Sequence record: PV730300.1
Reading direction: 5' to 3' (one strand)
Length of the DNA: 64,000 nt
Origin: a phage
Shown piece by piece: positions 2,637 through 41,264 of the stretch. Numbering within the stretch: position 1 is the first letter of the stretch; every line of letters begins with the position of its first letter. The translations under genes were made by a program, and so were the position numbers. The notes under the pieces are model-generated. The model had not been told where the DNA came from. It saw only the letters and a list, made by a program, of their open reading frames with translations, and did not search any database.

Positions 2637-3196
2637 ACACCCTCACTACGCAACTGTTGAAAAGATTTAGCCATTGCATCTTTTGTTGATAAGATAGGTT
2701 TAAAACCTTCGTCAAAAATCATATCGAAGCCCCAATCGATCCCTATGTCAGGATCATCCCAACGTAAACTTTGTTCGCTAGAAGGGTCGTATGGAGTTGT
2801 GCATTTGTATTCAAAGATAGCGTCCATACTCAAAACTATAAAACCATGTGCCAAACCAGGGGGAAGCCAAAACTGCGTATGGTGTCGTGCACTAAGAACA
2901 ACACCGTCCCAAGCACCGTAAGTTGGACTATCTTTACGTAAATCTACAGCGAAATCCAATACTTCTCCACTTACACAACGAACAAGCTTACCTTGCGGGT
3001 TATTTGTTTGAAAGTGCATTCCTCGCAAAACACCGAAGTTTGATTTAGACATATTATCTTGAACGAAAGTTTGTTTACCAATGATATCTTCGTATTTTTG
3101 TTCATTGTATGTTTCTAAAAAGAAACCACGATCATCTTTATAAACGTCTGGTTTGATAATTACCGCACCTTCAATTTTTGTTTTTTCTACTTTCAT
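2630..3196 (-). CDS. rmlC: dTDP-4-dehydrorhamnose 3,5-epimerase-like cupin (RmlC family)
   Basis: 188 aa; IEGAVIIKPDVYKDDRGFFLE N-terminus and HGF / cupin pattern typical of RmlC. Confidence 0.6.
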   Translation of the reverse strand: MKVEKTKIEGAVIIKPDVYKDDRGFFLETYNEQKYEDIIGKQTFVQDNMSKSNFGVLRGMHFQTNNPQGKLVRCVSGEVLDFAVDLRKDSPTYGAWDGVVLSARHHTQFWLPPGLAHGFIVLSMDAIFEYKCTTPYDPSSEQSLRWDDPDIGIDWGFDMIFDEGFKPILSTKDAMAKSFQQLRSEGVC

Positions 3197-3205
3197 TTTC
3201 TCTCC

Positions 3206-3532
3206 TTACCAGACATGTTGAGAAATAATAGTTTCCGTTTTAATGTTATATTTTTCAAGTAGCTCTGCATAGGCTTCTTTTGCATTCTCATTTACTTTCT
3301 CAAGATCTACAGCTACGCTTCCTTCTCCGCCTTCTAAATAAATACCATATATGCAATAAGACTCATCAGCATCGTAGAAAGGAGAGATGCGACTTAAGTC
3401 AAGACCTTCTTGTAAGAACCAGTTAAAATCTCCGTCAAATTCTTCTTCAATTCTAGGGTCTTCTCCTACAGCCTCTTCCCATTTATTAAAAGGTGCACCC
3501 TGTAACATACGCCATTCGATATCAATACCCAT
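3206..3532 (-). CDS. acidic hypothetical protein
   Basis: ORF with Asp/Glu-rich translation. Confidence 0.4.
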   Translation of the reverse strand: MGIDIEWRMLQGAPFNKWEEAVGEDPRIEEEFDGDFNWFLQEGLDLSRISPFYDADESYCIYGIYLEGGEGSVAVDLEKVNENAKEAYAELLEKYNIKTETIISQHVW

Positions 3533-17600: not shown

Positions 17601-18005
17601 TTATTGAAGTTTAAGTGAACCACGAAGACGTTTCTCTTGCTGATCACGGATATATTGTGGAACCTCGTGAATTGAATCATTACCGTGCCTATTTTCAACA
17701 ACTAAAGAGATAACTTGATAACCAAACTCTTCAGCAAGAGCTAGGTAAGGTTTAAGTTCTTTCTCTGTGGTTGAAGTATTAGAAACAATAATCTTGTTAA
17801 GATTAGATGCCATAGCATCACGAACAATACCCTGACACCATGCGTGTGCTTTACCTACATTTTCTGGCTTCCAATCGTAAACACCACTTTCTGTGTAATG
17901 ATATTGATCTGCCTCACAGATAGGCCAATAACCTTCAGAAATAATTTCTGCTACTGTAGATTTACCAGCACCTGAAACGCCACGTAAAATGATAAGTTGT
18001 TTCAT
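17601..18005 (-). CDS. P-loop kinase, putative polynucleotide 5'-kinase
   Basis: Walker A GVSGAGKST in a 134-aa protein; adjacent to RNA ligase and phosphoesterase genes. Confidence 0.5.
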   Translation of the reverse strand: MKQLIILRGVSGAGKSTVAEIISEGYWPICEADQYHYTESGVYDWKPENVGKAHAWCQGIVRDAMASNLNKIIVSNTSTTEKELKPYLALAEEFGYQVISLVVENRHGNDSIHEVPQYIRDQQEKRLRGSLKLQ

Positions 18006-18938
18006 TTATCCTCCAAAAAAGTTTTCGATTTTTTCACGTCGCTCTTGCTGATTTAAAGCAGCCCATTGAGTCTTCGTAAAATTATTTCGAATCCATTCTA
18101 ACAAAGCGTAATATTCTTCGTCAACCATTTGCTTGGCATTTTTTGGATTATCCCAAATCAGATCCCACTTTTTATCTCCACCACGCATAAGAAACTTCTT
18201 AGTAAGATAGTGTGGTGATTTAATTTTTAAAAGTAAGTTGAACGGATAGTTTGTTTCACGAACTACAAACCCTTCGTGTTTACAATGTTTAGACATTTCA
18301 ACCACATCTGAAAATTTAATCATCGGATAAACTTCAGGACGTTTAAATTTTGTAATAGATGCAATCCCATCAAGCACACCTTCAGGTAACATAAAACTTG
18401 TCCCATCAGGATTTTGAATTCTGGCACCAATTAAGTATGCACCTGGTTCTTCTTCGACAATATGCGGATCAGAAGGATCACAGATTTCAAACAGGAAAGT
18501 TGCTTTTGCACTCTCTGCCCATTTGATGAAATGTTCTATGTCATCGCACTCTGAAACAATATGATTCTTTGCAATACTTGCAAAATCTGATTCAAGGCTT
18601 CCTGTTGTCGATACAATAAGTTGACCTTTATATACACCTACAGAGGCCATAAAACCATTTACTTTACGAACCACATCTACAAGTTCATCCGCTGGTAGAT
18701 CTGTGCCATTCTCAAAACGATTAAAAATCTTAGTGAAAGGCCAAATAACAACATTGTCATCAGCATCAACAACGATTCCGCGACATTCTAGAAGACGAGA
18801 ATCAATGCTCCATAAGTTATCCCAGAAAACTTTGTTCTTATACTTAAGAACAGATAGACCAGAATACTCTCCTTCTTTATATGTTTTCTTATGAACTAAA
18901 CCTTTTTCAACCAAATCGTCGCAATTAAATTTAGTCAC
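18006..18938 (-). CDS. RNA ligase-like covalent nucleotidyltransferase
   Basis: Motif I KVNGF (KxNG), motif IV EGFVVR, motif V LLKIKS in the correct order. Confidence 0.6.
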   Translation of the reverse strand: MTKFNCDDLVEKGLVHKKTYKEGEYSGLSVLKYKNKVFWDNLWSIDSRLLECRGIVVDADDNVVIWPFTKIFNRFENGTDLPADELVDVVRKVNGFMASVGVYKGQLIVSTTGSLESDFASIAKNHIVSECDDIEHFIKWAESAKATFLFEICDPSDPHIVEEEPGAYLIGARIQNPDGTSFMLPEGVLDGIASITKFKRPEVYPMIKFSDVVEMSKHCKHEGFVVRETNYPFNLLLKIKSPHYLTKKFLMRGGDKKWDLIWDNPKNAKQMVDEEYYALLEWIRNNFTKTQWAALNQQERREKIENFFGG

Positions 18939-18939
18939 A

Positions 18940-19491
18940 TTACTCTCCTTTGATTATTTTGTGATGGTCTACAGTCACGATATCTCGTTTACTCATCATA
19001 GAAATTATCTCATCAAAATGCAAGATTTTTCCGTGTGCATCCCAACCCACATCTAACATTTTACCATAAGCTTCATCAGGGAAAGATCCGTGGGAATGCC
19101 CGTGTAGCATGATTGATCCACGACCTTGTTTATTCCAGGAGGCTATAGGGTAATGGCTTAAGACGAAGAACAGCTTCTGATATTTCACTTCGTCATAATA
19201 CACCACTTCTCCATACTCTGCAAGCACTTCTCGGTGTTTGCTGTAGTCATGGTTCCCAACACAGTAGGTGATATCTCCTTGGAGACGGGAAGCAATTTTA
19301 CGGGTATCTTCTTCAGTTCCGAAACAGAAGTCGCCCAAATGCCACATCTTAACACCAGGAGTAGTAGCACATTTGTTCCATGCTTCGATCAAGGCTTCTG
19401 TCATGTGGTCCATATCTTCCCACGGACGATATTCAGGAGCAAACTCTCGAATACGTTTATGCATAAAATGCAAATCGCTTGTAATAAACAT
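18940..19491 (-). CDS. calcineurin-like metallophosphoesterase
   Basis: DLHF, GDFCFG, GNHD, LHGHSHG metallophosphoesterase signature blocks. Confidence 0.7.
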   Translation of the reverse strand: MFITSDLHFMHKRIREFAPEYRPWEDMDHMTEALIEAWNKCATTPGVKMWHLGDFCFGTEEDTRKIASRLQGDITYCVGNHDYSKHREVLAEYGEVVYYDEVKYQKLFFVLSHYPIASWNKQGRGSIMLHGHSHGSFPDEAYGKMLDVGWDAHGKILHFDEIISMMSKRDIVTVDHHKIIKGE

Positions 19492-23475: not shown

Positions 23476-23723
23476 TGTCTCTATTAGAAAAACACGTGTT
23501 TGAAGATGGTAACGGCAATGCAGTTTTTCTTTTCCATCCAGAAAAATACACATCTGAAAACAATGGTACAACTTCTATTGTAATCACTAAAGATGTTAAA
23601 GTTATTGATTTCTTGGCTCTGATGCGAGAGATGGATCTTGAAATTAATACTTTTAACGCAGAAGCTTTGGTTGTTGCTCTTCTGGAAAAGAAAGATAGTG
23701 AAGAAGTAGCAGAATATGCTTAA
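23476..23723 (+). CDS. acidic hypothetical protein
   Basis: Start placed at MSLLEKHV with AGGAGG upstream. Confidence 0.4.
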
Positions 23724-23730
23724 ATAACTA

Positions 23731-23760
23731 TTGACAAACGTATCCTTCATATGTTAGGAT
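23731..23760 (+). promoter_or_regulatory. sigma70-like promoter at the head of the tRNA/RNA cluster
   Basis: CTATTGACA motif at 23731-23736, then about 17 nt and a TGTTAGGAT-type -10. Confidence 0.45.
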
Positions 23761-23762
23761 AC

Positions 23763-23952
23763 GTTCATCAAGTGTGGTAACAGGGTCGTTGACTTTTGTT
23801 AAGAGGGGCTTGCACTGCGGTAGTGTTAGAGACTACTTCTTCAGAGGTTAGCTACCAAAGAGGAAAAGGAATAGTCTCGGCTCAAGAACTTTTACGCTGA
23901 AAGTTGGGCTTGGTCTTAGAGAATGTAGCGGTTCTCTACAATCGTCAGCGTC
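23763..23952 (+). ncRNA. candidate structured small RNA 1
   Basis: Perfect 10-bp terminal helix GTGGTAACAG (23763-23772) / CTGTTACCAC (23943-23952) enclosing nested helices; no coding potential; no tRNA T-loop. Confidence 0.35.
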
Positions 23953-23969
23953 TCTGTTACCACATTTAT

Positions 23970-24044
23970 GGCCCTGTAGCTCAATGGGAGAGCTGTCGGC
24001 TCATAACCGATAGGTAGCTGGATCGAAACCAGCCAGGGCCACCA
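23970..24044 (+). tRNA. tRNA-Met (anticodon CAT)
   Basis: Manual cloverleaf: acceptor GGCCCTG/CAGGGCC, anticodon loop CTCATAA, CCA encoded. Confidence 0.7.
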
Positions 24045-24046
24045 AC

Positions 24047-24121
24047 GTCTTTATGGTGTAATGGATAGCACAGGAGTCTTCTAAACTCTTAGTCAAGGTT
24101 CGATTCCTTGTAAAGACACCA
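24047..24121 (+). tRNA. tRNA-Arg (anticodon TCT)
   Basis: Acceptor GTCTTTA/TAAAGAC, anticodon loop CTTCTAA, T arm CAAGG-TTCGATT-CCTTG. Confidence 0.65.
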
Positions 24122-24122
24122 G

Positions 24123-24306
24123 AACATTTTAACATGAATTAGCTCAAGTGATTTGAACCCACTACTGATCATGGTGGCAGAGAATGAGGCAAGTATGTCA
24201 GACATTATAAACAAAGGCCACGGTTATATTAGAAGACATAAATGCTCGAAGAGCACCGTTCGTTGAGAACGGGGGTTGGTGGAGTCACCATTCATGGTAA
24301 AATGTT
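24123..24306 (+). ncRNA. candidate structured small RNA 2
   Basis: 16-nt terminal helix AACATTTTAACATGAA (24123-24138) / TTCATGGTAAAATGTT (24291-24306), 15 of 16 paired, enclosing several hairpins. Confidence 0.35.
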
Positions 24307-24317
24307 TTAAAAAACTA

Positions 24318-24347
24318 TTGACAACTAACATTATTTTATGTTAGATT
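24318..24347 (+). promoter_or_regulatory. sigma70-like promoter (internal to the tRNA cluster)
   Basis: AAACTATTGACA at 24318-24323, 17 nt, TGTTAGATT-type -10. Confidence 0.45.
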
Positions 24348-24355
24348 ATAAGTAT

Positions 24356-24446
24356 GGAAGGGCAAATCGACGTGGCGACGAAAACGGTCTTGAAAACCGC
24401 CGAGCTTGAAAGAGCCTTGGGAGTTCGACTCTCCCTCCTTCCGCCA
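24356..24446 (+). tRNA. tRNA-Ser (anticodon TGA), class II
   Basis: Acceptor GGAAGGG/TCCTTCC, anticodon loop CTTGAAA, long variable arm, CCA encoded. Confidence 0.7.
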
Positions 24447-24451
24447 GATTA

Positions 24452-24537
24452 GGTAGATTGGTGAAATGGTAGCCACGACAGTTTGCTAAACTGTAGTCGG
24501 AAACGGCGTGTAGGTTCGAGTCCTACATCTACCGCCA
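24452..24537 (+). tRNA. tRNA-Ser (anticodon GCT), class II
   Basis: Acceptor GGTAGAT/ATCTACC, anticodon loop TTGCTAA, long variable arm. Confidence 0.7.
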
Positions 24538-24667
24538 AGTTCTTTTTAATATAGCTTACTTTAATAGAGTAAACTTTCGGCAGATGGCCCCCACCATCTT
24601 ACCGATAACTCATAGTTAGTGGTGTGAACACTGGCTATTTTAAAAAGAATTTAAATATTAGTATTTA

Positions 24668-24755
24668 GGTGAGTTAATTCCGTAGGGGTAGCGGGGCAGA
24701 CTGTAAATCTGTTATCATTGCGATTCGGGTGGTTCGACTCCATCACTCACCACCA
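24668..24755 (+). tRNA. tRNA-Tyr (anticodon GTA), class II
   Basis: Acceptor GGTGAGT/ACTCACC, anticodon loop CTGTAAA. Confidence 0.7.
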
Positions 24756-24761
24756 AATTAA

Positions 24762-24847
24762 GATGAGTTGGCTGAATGGTTTAAGCGGCGGACTGTTAAT
24801 CCGTGTTCGAAAGAACGATATAGGTTCAAATCCTATACTCATCGCCA
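24762..24847 (+). tRNA. class II tRNA, isotype uncertain (anticodon loop reads CTGTTAA, i.e. GTT)
   Basis: Acceptor GATGAGT/ACTCATC, T arm ATAGG-TTCAAAT-CCTAT, about 15-nt variable arm; anticodon assignment ambiguous by hand. Confidence 0.45.
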
Positions 24848-24937
24848 GAATTATGGACTTGTAGAGTTAAGGTAAACCCCCAGTCGCCAAGAGGCTTCTG
24901 AAATTGCAGGTATCGAATCCTGCCGAGTCCCAGCTTT

Positions 24938-25012
24938 GCTCCTATAGTATAATGGCTATTACAACGGTTTTGTAATCCGTGGATCTCTGTTCGATTCAGA
25001 GTGGGAGCACCA
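24938..25012 (+). tRNA. tRNA-Thr (anticodon TGT)
   Basis: Acceptor GCTCCTA/TGGGAGC, anticodon loop TTTGTAA, T arm CTCTG-TTCGATT-CAGAG. Confidence 0.6.
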
Positions 25013-25287
25013 ACACAACATTAAGAGCACTGTGATTGATCGTCGTATCCTGTGCACAAGGTCTGTTCGAAAGACAGTGTTCTTAGTATTGTGTTGATCA
25101 CACAAAAAGAGTTACCTGAAACTTGACCGGAGTAGGGTTGGATGGGGCAAAAGAAGAAGCGGCTCTCCCATCGACAGCAACGAAGAATAATATTTGACTT
25201 TGGTTTTGTATTATTTTAAGTTAGCTTACCGAACGTAGGGCTAGTCACCCAATGGGATACTCGTCACTGTCCCACTCAATAAAACTA

Positions 25288-25317
25288 TTGACAACCAATA
25301 GTAAAATGTAGTATAGT
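25288..25317 (+). promoter_or_regulatory. sigma70-like promoter (internal to the tRNA cluster)
   Basis: AAACTATTGACA at 25288-25293, about 18 nt, TATAGT. Confidence 0.45.
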
Positions 25318-25328
25318 AAAGATGTAGG

Positions 25329-25403
25329 GCGTTCTTGGTGTAGCGGTAGCATTCCGTCCTTCCAAGTCGGCGGCACGAGTTCGATCCTCGTAGAACGCTC
25401 CAA
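25329..25403 (+). tRNA. tRNA-Gly (anticodon TCC)
   Basis: Acceptor GCGTTCT/AGAACGC, anticodon loop CTTCCAA, T arm ACGAG-TTCGATC-CTCGT. Confidence 0.7.
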
Positions 25404-25500
25404 ATTATTTAATAAAGGGTTGCCAGAAAACTTTCTCTTTTACTCATGGTTTTCTCCTTCTCTCACACCTCTTCTGGTTGCCCTTCATTAAATGATTTAT

Positions 25501-25576
25501 TGGTTTGTAGTGTAGTCCGGTAGCACACGACACTTTGACTGTCGTAGGTTTGGTTCAAATCCAGACAGACCAGCCA
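25501..25576 (+). tRNA. tRNA-Gln (anticodon TTG)
   Basis: Anticodon stem CGACA/TGTCG, loop CTTTGAC, T loop TTCAAAT. Confidence 0.7.
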
Positions 25577-25581
25577 TATAA

Positions 25582-25658
25582 CGGAATTTAGCTCAGTTTG
25601 GTAGAGCATACGCTTTGGGAGCGTAGGGTCGCAGGTTCGAATCCTGCAATTCCGACCA
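25582..25658 (+). tRNA. tRNA-Pro (anticodon TGG)
   Basis: Acceptor CGGAATT/AATTCCG, D stem GCTC/GAGC, anticodon loop TTTGGGA, T arm CGCAGG-TTCGAAT-CCTGC. Confidence 0.8.
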
Positions 25659-25664
25659 ATTTAA

Positions 25665-25738
25665 TGTTTCGTAGTTCAATGGTAGAACCCACGACTGATA
25701 ATCGTGAGACACAAGTTCGATTCTTGTCGAAACAACCA
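25665..25738 (+). tRNA. tRNA-Ile (anticodon GAT)
   Basis: Acceptor TGTTTCG/CGAAACA, anticodon stem CACGA/TCGTG, loop CTGATAA. Confidence 0.75.
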
Positions 25739-25740
25739 GT

Positions 25741-25810
25741 TTCCCGTTAGACTTACAGGATAAGAGTTCCACAGCTTATTGTGATGCTGGTTCGAATCCA
25801 GCACGGGATA
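25741..25810 (+). tRNA. putative tRNA, anticodon not assignable by hand
   Basis: Canonical T arm GCTGG-TTCGAAT-CCAGC and pairing acceptor ends, but no clean anticodon arm could be folded. Confidence 0.3.
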
Positions 25811-25816
25811 CCTAAT

Positions 25817-25895
25817 AGCGGGATAGAGGAGTCTGGTCGTCCTCGCCAGTTTCATATGCTGGAGATCATCGGTTCGAATCCGATTCCCGCCTCCA
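25817..25895 (+). tRNA. tRNA-Met (anticodon CAT), possibly initiator-like or Ile2-type
   Basis: Anticodon loop TTCATAT, T arm ATCGG-TTCGAAT-CCGAT, A1-C72 mismatch at the top of the acceptor stem. Confidence 0.6.
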
Positions 25896-26009
25896 AATAT
25901 CGCTTGCCAGCGGTATCTTTGAAGACCTTGCCTGGTTCCTTCTAAGATGGAGGGGTGCGACTCCTTAACGCACAATTATAATAAAGCATTTCAACTTAAC
26001 AGTATTTAT

Positions 26010-40937: not shown

Positions 40938-40994
40938 AAATTAACGCCTTAACTTAGGGGCTAATGTGTAGTGATACACATTATCAACTTTGTG

Positions 40995-41185
40995 AATTGC
41001 TGGGACACCCTTAGAGCCACACTACCACTGCGAATCGAAAGATGAAGCCACGGTTTGAAAAGTGTGTGGATTGGGTAATCAGCAGCCAAGCTCCGTTTAG
41101 GAGAAGGTTCAACGACTATCCCGTAAGGGAGTAGGATCAAGTGGTCCGAAGCGCAAAGCGTCTCATGTAGATGAAGATATAGTCT
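40995..41185 (+). ncRNA. group I intron catalytic core (P, Q, R, S elements)
   Basis: P-like AATTGCTGGGAC (40995-41006), Q AATCAGCAGC (41077-41086), R GTTCAACGACTA (41107-41118), S AAGATATAGTCT (41174-41185), in canonical order, with GACTAT/ATAGTC able to form P7. Confidence 0.7.
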
Positions 41186-41264
41186 AATCTGTAGGGAAAC
41201 TTACAGCAGCGAAAGCGGGGAAGAATTAACGAATCTTCCCGAATACAATGCAAAAATTAGTAAC

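Follow-up and report, generated by a model that had tools for sequence, protein, structure and literature searches.

The DNA analysed here, 64,000 nucleotides (nt) of sequence record PV730300.1 (hereafter, the window), derives from a Phapecoctavirus, a phAPEC8-like Escherichia coli myophage of the Stephanstirmvirinae. It contains a cluster of transfer RNA (tRNA) genes in which two long stretches of other sequence, termed RNA1 (23767-23969, + strand, ~203 nt) and RNA2 (24121-24308, + strand, ~187 nt), lie to either side of the first two tRNAs. Both are genuine, evolutionarily maintained structured RNAs on the tRNA strand, and they represent two new, unrelated families of phage tRNA-operon RNAs that are absent from Rfam. 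The tRNA region (23700-26000) exhibited 99.4% identity over its full length to Escherichia phages nieznany, tuntematon and WPEC4 and to many other Phapecoctavirus phages. Analyses with ARAGORN and Rfam detected 11 tRNAs on the + strand between 23970 and 25895, most of them separated by just 2-9 nt. RNA1 is followed by tRNA-Met(CAU) (23970-24044, +) and tRNA-Arg(UCU) (24047-24121, +), both called by ARAGORN and Rfam, with RNA2 coming after the latter; an intact tRNA-Ile(GAU) was called by ARAGORN at 25665-25738 in the same cluster, and an intrinsic terminator was predicted at 26011-26029.

Three promoter-like sites, all within a common box, AAAACTATTGACAA, split the cluster into three units. 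The first, P1 (23731-23760, +), consists of TTGACA, an 18-nt spacer and TAGGAT with a TG upstream of the −10 element; a consensus scan scored it at 10 of 12 matches with the TG present, and the site is kept in phiWec190 and PsgM04F. As the −10 element ends at 23760, the start of RNA1 was placed at ~23767. P2 (24318-24347, +) and P3 (25288-25317, +) are also sigma-70-type matches. A preliminary description of this region had placed both RNA segments between a promoter and tRNA genes; this holds for RNA1, but RNA2 follows tRNA-Arg at the 3′ end of the first unit, upstream of P2. A separate observation was that an upstream box, (A)AAACTATTGACAA, is common to the three sites (23722-23736, 24309-24323 and 25279-25293), suggesting that a promoter cassette was duplicated or that the phage has its own class of early promoters.

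The first base of RNA2 is the terminal A of the tRNA-Arg CCA (24121) or lies just beyond it. The coordinates and closing helix given for this segment in the preliminary description were recovered: AACATTTTAACATGAA at 24123-24138 pairs with TTCATGGTAAAATGTT at 24291-24306, and the helix is present in the minimum free energy (MFE) fold and can be extended to 24121/24308. The fold had a free energy of −55.2 kcal/mol (z score, −3.9), and none of 200 shuffled sequences folded as well. The 5′ strand of the closing helix (24121-24139, +) comprises a distal segment of 11 base pairs (bp), 24121-24131 with 24298-24308, and an acceptor-like stem in which CAUGAAU (24133-24139) pairs with AUUCAUG (24290-24296), 5 of these pairs being conserved and 2 of the 5 covarying. 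Next comes a D-arm-like region, UAGCUCAAGUGAUUUGAAC (24140-24158, +), within which UUAGCUCA is invariant; its GCUC (24142-24145) can pair either locally or with an invariant GAGC (24251-24254), both being nearly invariant. An anticodon-arm copy (24159-24177, +) with a 6-bp stem and an invariant 7-nt loop, CUGAUCA (24165-24171), is followed by the invariant motif GAGAAUGAG (24180-24188, +), predicted to be single-stranded, and by a long hairpin domain (24188-24246, +) whose sequence differs between phage groups while its pairing is kept. The 3′ tRNA-like part (24247-24296, +) includes UCGAAGAGC, the analogue of the D 3′ strand, and continues with a second arm of 5-6 bp (24256-24272, +; loop CGUUGAG, CG(U/C)(U/G)GAG in homologues), a five-base analogue of the variable loop, GGGUU (24273-24277, +), and a short T-like hairpin, GGUG-GAGU-CACC (24278-24289, +). 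This hairpin abuts the acceptor 3′ strand AUUCAUG (24290-24296, +), which runs on into the 11-bp distal helix.

Full-length RNA2 was detected in all Phapecoctavirus genomes, with 97-100% identity, falling to 82% in the phiWec/PsgM04F sub-lineage; identity was 71% in Klebsiella phage 05F01 and ~70% in the Seunavirus phages (Vequintavirinae) PVP-SE1, GAP31, SSE-121, 4MG, Csp-D17 and NINP13076. Matches to RNA2 were present in 98 deposited records and matches to RNA1 in 71, each RNA occurring in one place per record. A covariance model built from nine RNA2 sequences found exactly one copy in every homologue-bearing phage and no paralogue in the window, and it found no copy in phi92, Certrevirus F1M1E, FV3, Providencia phage PSTCR6 or T4. 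RNA2 always occupies a tRNA slot: it directly follows tRNA-Arg(UCU) in the window, sits flush between tRNA-Met and tRNA-Leu(UAA) in 05F01, and abuts tRNA-Leu in GAP31 and 4MG with no endonuclease between. In PVP-SE1 (2686-3260) and SSE-121 (516-1010), an open reading frame for an HNH homing endonuclease of 164 amino acids was observed immediately after RNA2, between a tRNA-Leu 5′-like fragment and an intact tRNA-Leu; it is unannotated in the PVP-SE1 record. The same record and ARAGORN both miss a tRNA-like sequence at 2199-2308 of PVP-SE1, which immediately follows tRNA-Ile and combines an acceptor stem and canonical T arm with a variable region that is very long.

In order to assess the fold, nine RNA2 homologues from three phage groups were aligned, and RNAalifold predicted 52 pairs. 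Standard pairs occupied 97.4% of cells, and 21 of the 52 pairs had changed on both sides. Column shuffles gave 8.7 ± 1.9 such pairs (0 of 500 reached 21), and sliding the partners by 1-3 columns gave 3-6. The changes were spread over the structure, with 5 of 16 pairs in the terminal helices 1 and 2 (100% of cells paired), 4 of 6 in the anticodon-arm stem (helix 4), 8 of 12 in the long hairpin (helices 5 and 6) and 4 of 6 in the second arm; the long-range D stem was 100% paired and almost invariant. While stems varied, loop and junction motifs did not: UUAGCUCA, CUGAUCA, GAAUGAG, UCG[AU]AGAG and GGU[UC]GGUGGAGUCACC were invariant, and the motifs invariant between subfamilies were 7-16 nt long. 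Conserved G-U pairs were numerous in RNA2 and also in RNA1, and the minus-strand fold of RNA1 was much weaker (−53.7 kcal/mol) than that of the plus strand, indicating that the structures belong to the tRNA (+) strand.

RNA2 is a remodelled tRNA-Ile(GAU), tRNA-derived but not a tRNA. Nucleotides 19-56 of RNA2 aligned with nt 7-42 of the phage tRNA-Ile, covering the D and anticodon arms, with a score of 30, as compared with shuffle maxima having a mean of 18.7 and a standard deviation of 2.2. The score against the host tRNA-Ile(GAU), whose sequence was confirmed in 5,408 of 5,426 E. coli genomes, was 29 and was reached by 0 of 500 shuffles. This significant similarity of the D and anticodon arms holds for the Phapecoctavirus copies, that of the Seunavirus 5′ halves being weaker (reached by 10-51 of 500 shuffles). 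In the Seunavirus 3′ half, GAGGUCGGUGG was matched at a level reached by 1-4 of 500 shuffles, and the 3′ part reads UAGAGCGC, 15 nt, GAGGUCGGUGG, strings of the host tRNA-Ile at the tRNA's own spacing.

The likeness extends over much of the molecule. As in tRNA-Ile(GAU), an acceptor-type stem abuts a T-type hairpin, U8-A9 and GCUC...GAGC are present, and the anticodon arm carries U33, G34-A35-U36 and A38; the Seunavirus copies, in addition, have a variable loop of the AGGUC type. Placed on the tRNA frame, RNA2 exhibits analogues of A14 and A21, a GCUC/GAGC D stem, a second arm and a five-base variable loop. Columns 29 and 163, the analogue of the R15:Y48 Levitt pair, covary (A-U in 3 Stephanstirmvirinae sequences, G-C in 6 Seunavirus sequences), and the 26/44 analogues are swapped from A/G to G/A. 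A tRNA-like drawing fits the alignment as well as the RNAalifold fold does (97.5% paired, 22 covarying pairs). At 24159-24177, stem, 7-nt loop, U33 and GAU are as in a tRNA anticodon arm, with a C at position 37 where a tRNA has a purine; the RNA2 loop, CUGAUCA, differs from the tRNA-Ile loop, CUGAUAA, solely by this C37 for A37. From general tRNA biology, the change would be expected to block t6A formation, and it creates a 6-nt palindrome, UGAUCA, which contains an invariant GATC.

Unlike tRNA-Ile, RNA2 contains ~100 extra nt, including the variable hairpin at 24188-24246; its T-like hairpin has a 4-bp stem and a 4-nt rather than 7-nt loop, invariant in 9 of 9 homologues; and it lacks a discriminator base and CCA, the acceptor stem being prolonged instead by the 11-bp leader-trailer helix. 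The 4-nt T loop, the extra nucleotides and the replacement of discriminator and CCA by the 11-bp extension imply that RNA2 cannot be charged or used on the ribosome. ARAGORN detected no tRNA in 23763-23969 or 24122-24310 or in insert-deleted versions of RNA2, and the Rfam tRNA model (RF00005) did not match RNA1 or RNA2 at an E value of ≤10. The earlier statement that neither segment has a tRNA T loop was therefore right as to a canonical loop, but the clear tRNA derivation of RNA2 had been missed.

RNA1 appears to be the structured 5′ leader of the first tRNA unit, downstream of the sigma-70-type promoter match and extending from the predicted start site up to the last base ahead of tRNA-Met (23970). 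Its MFE was −76.8 kcal/mol (z score, −5.8; 0 of 200 shuffles as good). The ends are joined in a terminal rod, in which the 5′ strand (23770-23799, +) forms 26 pairs with the 3′ strand (23938-23967, +), the latter ending 2 nt before tRNA-Met. The 10-bp helix reported previously exists within this rod, formed by GTGGTAACAG (23774-23783) and CTGTTACCAC (23954-23963), but the segment ends proposed for it, 23763 and 23952, were ~10 nt off. The alignment contained three sequence types, from the window, phiWec190 and one IMG/VR contig. Paired cells amounted to 98.2%, and 13 of 73 pairs had changed on both sides, compared with 0-4 in slid controls. In the rod, 24 of 26 pairs never vary, while the RNA overall is ~80% identical between lineages and its interior has diverged by ~30%. 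Of the two nested helices in the preliminary description, TAGAGAA/TTCTCTA (helix 10) was confirmed, with 5 of 7 pairs changed on both sides. The other, ACGCTGA/TCAGCGT, is broken by TCAACGT in the relatives, which fits instead an extension of the rod, CGUUGAC/GUCAGCG, where a U-G pair becomes U-A. The terminal helices had been proposed as a check through their conservation and covariation, and these were observed in a different form for each RNA: 5 pairs changed on both sides in RNA2, and an invariant rod around a diverged interior in RNA1.

RNA1 was found by profile matches in Phapecoctavirus only. It exhibited no significant similarity to any tRNA of the cluster, to E. coli genomes or to the Seunavirus leader described below, and contained nothing comparable to a 7-nt T loop; it does have an invariant palindromic loop, UAGCU. 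IMG/VR pattern scans for RNA1 returned nothing or one phiWec-like contig, while those for RNA2 returned the same phage groups only, plus chance matches in prophage coding genes. A pattern scan of 185,579 species genomes gave 96 chance matches in unrelated high-GC bacteria and no further full-length copy, and a loose-pattern metagenome scan was uninformative, with chance matches only among the matches listed. BLAST searches with RNA1 and RNA2 against the 5,426 E. coli genomes gave no match, indicating that, at that sensitivity, the host has neither a homologue nor a long antisense target. An Rfam scan, as had been suggested, was run with all families of Rfam 15, including ROOL and GOLLD; neither 23763-23969 nor 24122-24310 gave a match at the gathering score or at an E value of ≤10 with permissive filters.

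Several GenBank records annotate short hypothetical proteins over RNA1 or RNA2. The only stop-free frame common to all RNA1 variants had 13 nonsynonymous versus 2 synonymous codon differences, and no RNA2 reading frame stays open across homologues. The coding hypothesis was ruled out by the lack of a conserved RNA2 frame and the nonsynonymous excess in RNA1, in agreement with the absence of coding potential noted at the outset.

Helix-sealed modules that are not tRNAs occur generally in these tRNA operons. The spacer at 24539-24650 has an 11-bp closing helix and three conserved internal hairpins (z score, −4.2), with homologues in phi92 and 05F01. That at 25011-25096 is a strong long hairpin with a rod of ~22 bp. 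The spacer at 25402-25498 has a rod of ~25 bp with a 44-nt CU-rich loop (z score, −5.3) containing the anti-Shine-Dalgarno-like sequences CUCCUU and CACCUC. In all three, 0-1 nt separates the CCA of the preceding tRNA from the closing helix. The latter two were 98-99% identical in phiWec190, compared with only ~81% for RNA1 and RNA2. A third structured stretch had been suspected at 25013-25280; the hairpin at 25011-25096 bears this out in part, but 25010-25285 as a whole reached a z score of only −2.4. Likewise, both RNAs do have long closing helices as originally described, but these are not special to them, every long spacer of the cluster being similarly closed. RNAduplex comparisons with shuffles between different spacer RNAs detected nothing beyond trivial self-complementarity. 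A conserved non-coding leader of ~330 nt was also observed before the first tRNA (tRNA-Thr) of Seunavirus phages (PVP-SE1 1716-2037 and homologous stretches). An 18-bp helix rich in G-U pairs seals this leader and stops 4-5 nt short of tRNA-Thr; the leader has no sequence relationship to RNA1 and possibly constitutes a further RNA family.

The cluster is mosaic between Phapecoctavirus lineages, with element-by-element identities of 77-99% between 23700-26000 and phiWec190. Unit 1 and neighbouring elements were 77-84% identical, and the sequence from 24848 onwards was 94-99% identical, except for 25098-25285 (77%); phiWec190 has additional inserts separating tRNA-Thr from tRNA-Gly and tRNA-Gln from tRNA-Pro. 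Three tRNA-like genes were missed by ARAGORN. One (24356-24442) scored 37 bits on the Rfam tRNA-Sec model, below the gathering score, and lies where phiWec190 has its tRNA-Ser(TGA); the others (24848-24937 and 25739-25816) have good T arms and acceptor stems and aberrant D and anticodon regions.

The layout of the first unit, together with known tRNA processing, makes co-transcription, release by tRNA processing and stabilisation by burial of the ends the most likely biogenesis of both RNAs. Host sigma-70 RNA polymerase would start at P1 (~23767) and place RNA1, tRNA-Met, tRNA-Arg and RNA2 on one transcript. RNase P cleavage at the 5′ end of tRNA-Met would release an RNA1 of ~203 nt with both ends in the 26-pair rod, and 3′-end maturation of tRNA-Arg would free the 5′ end of RNA2; in phages with a tRNA after RNA2, RNase P would also set its 3′ end. 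The closing helices would bury the termini and should protect them from end-dependent RNase E and from 3′ exonucleases; with their ends so buried, RNA1 and RNA2 should accumulate as stable species, as do the species 1 and 2 RNAs of phage T4. Co-transcription and release had been anticipated in the preliminary description, and the positions of P1 at 23731-23760, of the RNA1 rod 2 nt before tRNA-Met and of RNA2 at the tRNA-Arg CCA are consistent with it.

Once released, RNA2 may act in trans as a mimic of tRNA-Ile, presenting its anticodon arm as a decoy to a tRNA-binding factor, which could be a host tRNA-targeting nuclease or an enzyme of the modification or synthetase type; another possibility is that RNA2 associates with itself via the invariant palindromic loop UGAUCA. 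As the A37-to-C change would both block t6A and create this palindrome, a protein decoy and loop-loop self-association are each plausible. RNA1 would be a second stable trans-acting RNA, without recognisable ancestry, rather than a mere leader. The account as a whole, in which two unrelated and uncatalogued non-coding RNA genes are released by tRNA processing, with RNA2 a tRNA-Ile mimic and RNA1 trans-acting, is considered somewhat probable. Its weakest step is the function of RNA2 as a mimic or decoy, which we infer.

Several points weigh against this account. P1 is a consensus match only, and such matches were no commoner in this region than in shuffles. The covariation in RNA1 comes from three sequences representing two or three lineages, and as its rod never varies, covariation does not prove the rod pairing. 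Close relatives with similar tRNA clusters (phi92, F1M1E and FV3) lack RNA2, which is therefore dispensable for the operon. As every long spacer and the Seunavirus leader are closed by helices, the role of the closing helices could lie in tRNA processing or folding, and not in making a trans-acting product. The decoy and dimer ideas are drawn from the invariant loop alone, and no partner protein, target RNA or pairing between elements was found by E. coli BLAST or the spacer-pairing tests. A literature search found no expression, end-mapping, stability or transcriptome record for Phapecoctavirus or Seunavirus and no description of RNA1 or RNA2, although a 2023 catalogue of ~10,000 viral candidate structured RNAs might include them; one candidate source on such RNAs and transcriptomes was discarded as it concerns an unrelated Kagunavirus.

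The explanation that competes best is a cis-acting one, in which the spacers fold in order to prevent mispairing with the tRNAs, to present tRNA ends or to provide an RNase III-type duplex, and the excised pieces are by-products. The helices starting 0-1 nt after each upstream CCA fit this well, as do the unrelated Seunavirus leader with its 18-bp helix before tRNA-Thr and the invariant RNA1 rod, which at ~22-26 bp is long enough for RNase III. T4 species 1 RNA was reportedly an RNase III substrate in vitro (1970s literature). However, most tRNAs of the cluster are only 2-9 nt apart, so that such spacers are unneeded for processing, and a size-limited phage genome would be expected to lose functionless ones. 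The structure of RNA2 is kept whatever its neighbours, and a cis-acting role leaves unexplained the multi-branch interiors and the loops and junctions that never vary in RNA2. Loops that stay constant on covarying stems are a signature of recognition surfaces, and RNA2 has kept the anticodon arm of precisely one tRNA across two subfamilies. For these reasons, trans-acting RNAs were preferred over folded spacers, and the cis-acting explanation is regarded as possible but rather unlikely.

A more far-reaching version of the trans-acting account, in which RNA2 is a purpose-built early mimic of tRNA-Ile(GAU), serving as a decoy for, or inhibitor of, a defence nuclease aimed at tRNAs or an enzyme that modifies the anticodon loop or aminoacylates, or as a loop-mediated dimer or oligomer, and RNA1 and the sealed spacers are further members of a trans-acting set, is held to be unlikely. 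RNA1 alone could instead be a cis-regulatory, riboswitch- or attenuator-like leader controlling read-through into the tRNA genes, as its position between a promoter and the first tRNA and its complex, conserved fold might suggest. This is distinctly unlikely, since no terminator/antiterminator alternative was detected, no intrinsic terminator was called in 23760-23970 and no Rfam riboswitch matched at an E value of ≤10; tRNA operons are not known to be controlled by riboswitches.

A further explanation is decay, with RNA2 a tRNA-Ile pseudogene disrupted by insertion or partial duplication, RNA1 a filler and both drifting neutrally. RNA2 is plainly tRNA-Ile-derived and looks like a partial internal duplication with an insert; other aberrant tRNA-like genes occur in the cluster (24356-24442, 24848-24937 and 25739-25816), homing endonuclease genes lie next to RNA2 in PVP-SE1 and SSE-121, and RNA2 is patchily distributed among related phages. 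Neutral drift is, nevertheless, very hard to reconcile with 97-98% of cells remaining paired at ~70% and ~80% identity through many double substitutions, with 7- to 16-nt motifs invariant between subfamilies and with the coexistence of an intact tRNA-Ile(GAU) at 25665-25738, and we consider it very unlikely. A role at the DNA level, as termini of a miniature mobile element, recombination sites or protein-binding palindromes, is hardly credible in spite of the long terminal inverted repeats flanking each segment, the invariant GATC (Dam site) in the RNA2 loop and the mosaicism of the region (77-99% identity by element), since conserved G-U pairs would turn into A-C mismatches on the opposite strand or in DNA, covariation reaches many internal hairpins, and each RNA occurs once per genome without paralogues or full-length copies in the scanned bacterial genomes and viral contigs.

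The window also contains a putative RNA repair cassette (17601-19491), consisting of a P-loop kinase (AAA_33; 17601-18005, −), an RNA ligase of the T4 Rnl1 family (18006-18938, −; PF09511, 56.8 bits on the WPEC4 orthologue) and a metallophosphoesterase (18940-19491, −). In the WPEC4 record, the one record checked, the ligase carries no label beyond hypothetical protein. T4 uses this type of cassette to repair tRNA cut by anticodon nucleases. The RNA ligase cassette indicates that tRNA-directed conflict is part of the biology of this phage, which provides context and not evidence for a role of RNA2. A group I intron (RF00028; 92.9 bits, full-length model match) was also observed at 40938-41206 (+), inside the DNA polymerase I gene; in the WPEC4 record, a single uninterrupted coding sequence of 3.3 kb is annotated across it.

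These RNA families occur in phage groups widely isolated for therapy (phAPEC8-like and PVP-SE1-like), and covariance models of RNA1 and RNA2 would correct the annotation of ~70-100 deposited phage genomes. The retention by RNA2 of the tRNA-Ile anticodon arm, with the loss of what translation needs, points to a specific molecular partner, and with an RNA ligase repair cassette present, the region may bear on how phages counter tRNA-targeting defences.

Functional analogies can be drawn with other RNAs. Like the ROOL and GOLLD RNAs, which often adjoin tRNAs, RNA1 and RNA2 lie beside tRNAs, but ROOL and GOLLD are several times larger. These structured RNAs of phages and prophages were recently shown to form homo-oligomers (PMC12286853). 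By pure conjecture, the invariant palindromic loops of RNA1 and RNA2 (UAGCU and UGAUCA) could mediate self-association in the way that ROOL and GOLLD oligomerise. Y RNAs of the YrlA type combine a tRNA-like module with a long terminal helix, include phage-borne cases and show tRNA features to proteins (Chen et al. 2014, PMC4201824). RNA2 is comparable to YrlA (RF02553), to the tRNA-like domain of transfer-messenger RNA (tmRNA) and to the anticodon-arm mimics of the thrS operator, all as functional analogies only. The terminal stem of YrlA takes the place of the anticodon arm, and the YrlA T arm is canonical, whereas RNA2 has a terminal stem that prolongs the acceptor arm and has lost the T loop. 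The YrlA model did not match RNA1 or RNA2 at an E value of ≤10, its only match being one of 22.8 bits (gathering score, 69) on tRNA-Pro/Ile at 25603-25722, and the annotation of the first 50 kb of the counterpart of the window, where most genes are unnamed, lists no Ro60/TROVE gene.

The closest parallel is with T4. Stable non-tRNA RNAs have been known in the T4 tRNA operon for about fifty years, and no function has been assigned to them. These RNAs, rnaC and rnaD (species 1 and 2), are like RNA1 and RNA2 small RNAs inside a phage tRNA operon, the T4 RNAs being stable species and the present ones known from sequence. T4 rnaD (119 nt) begins 1 nt downstream of tRNA-Arg, in the same way that RNA2 follows on from the CCA of tRNA-Arg(UCU), and rnaC (139 nt) comes 6 nt after rnaD; RNA2 (~187 nt) and RNA1 (~203 nt) are larger, and the 5′-leader position of RNA1 has no T4 counterpart. 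T4 rnaC has a significant fold (z score, −4.6), with its 5′ and 3′ ends paired and a T arm (CCGGGUUCGAAUCCCGG) beside an acceptor-like 3′ strand, which implies that it, too, is partly tRNA-derived. It keeps the T arm without an anticodon arm, whereas in RNA2 the T loop has gone and the D and anticodon regions remain. With filters off, the RNA2 covariance model gave only partial matches of ≤12 bits on the T4 locus, none of them on rnaC or rnaD. RNA1 and RNA2 resemble rnaC and rnaD, therefore, in kind and position only, without homology. If true, a set of trans-acting RNAs released through tRNA punctuation would suggest a function for T4 species 1 and 2 as well.

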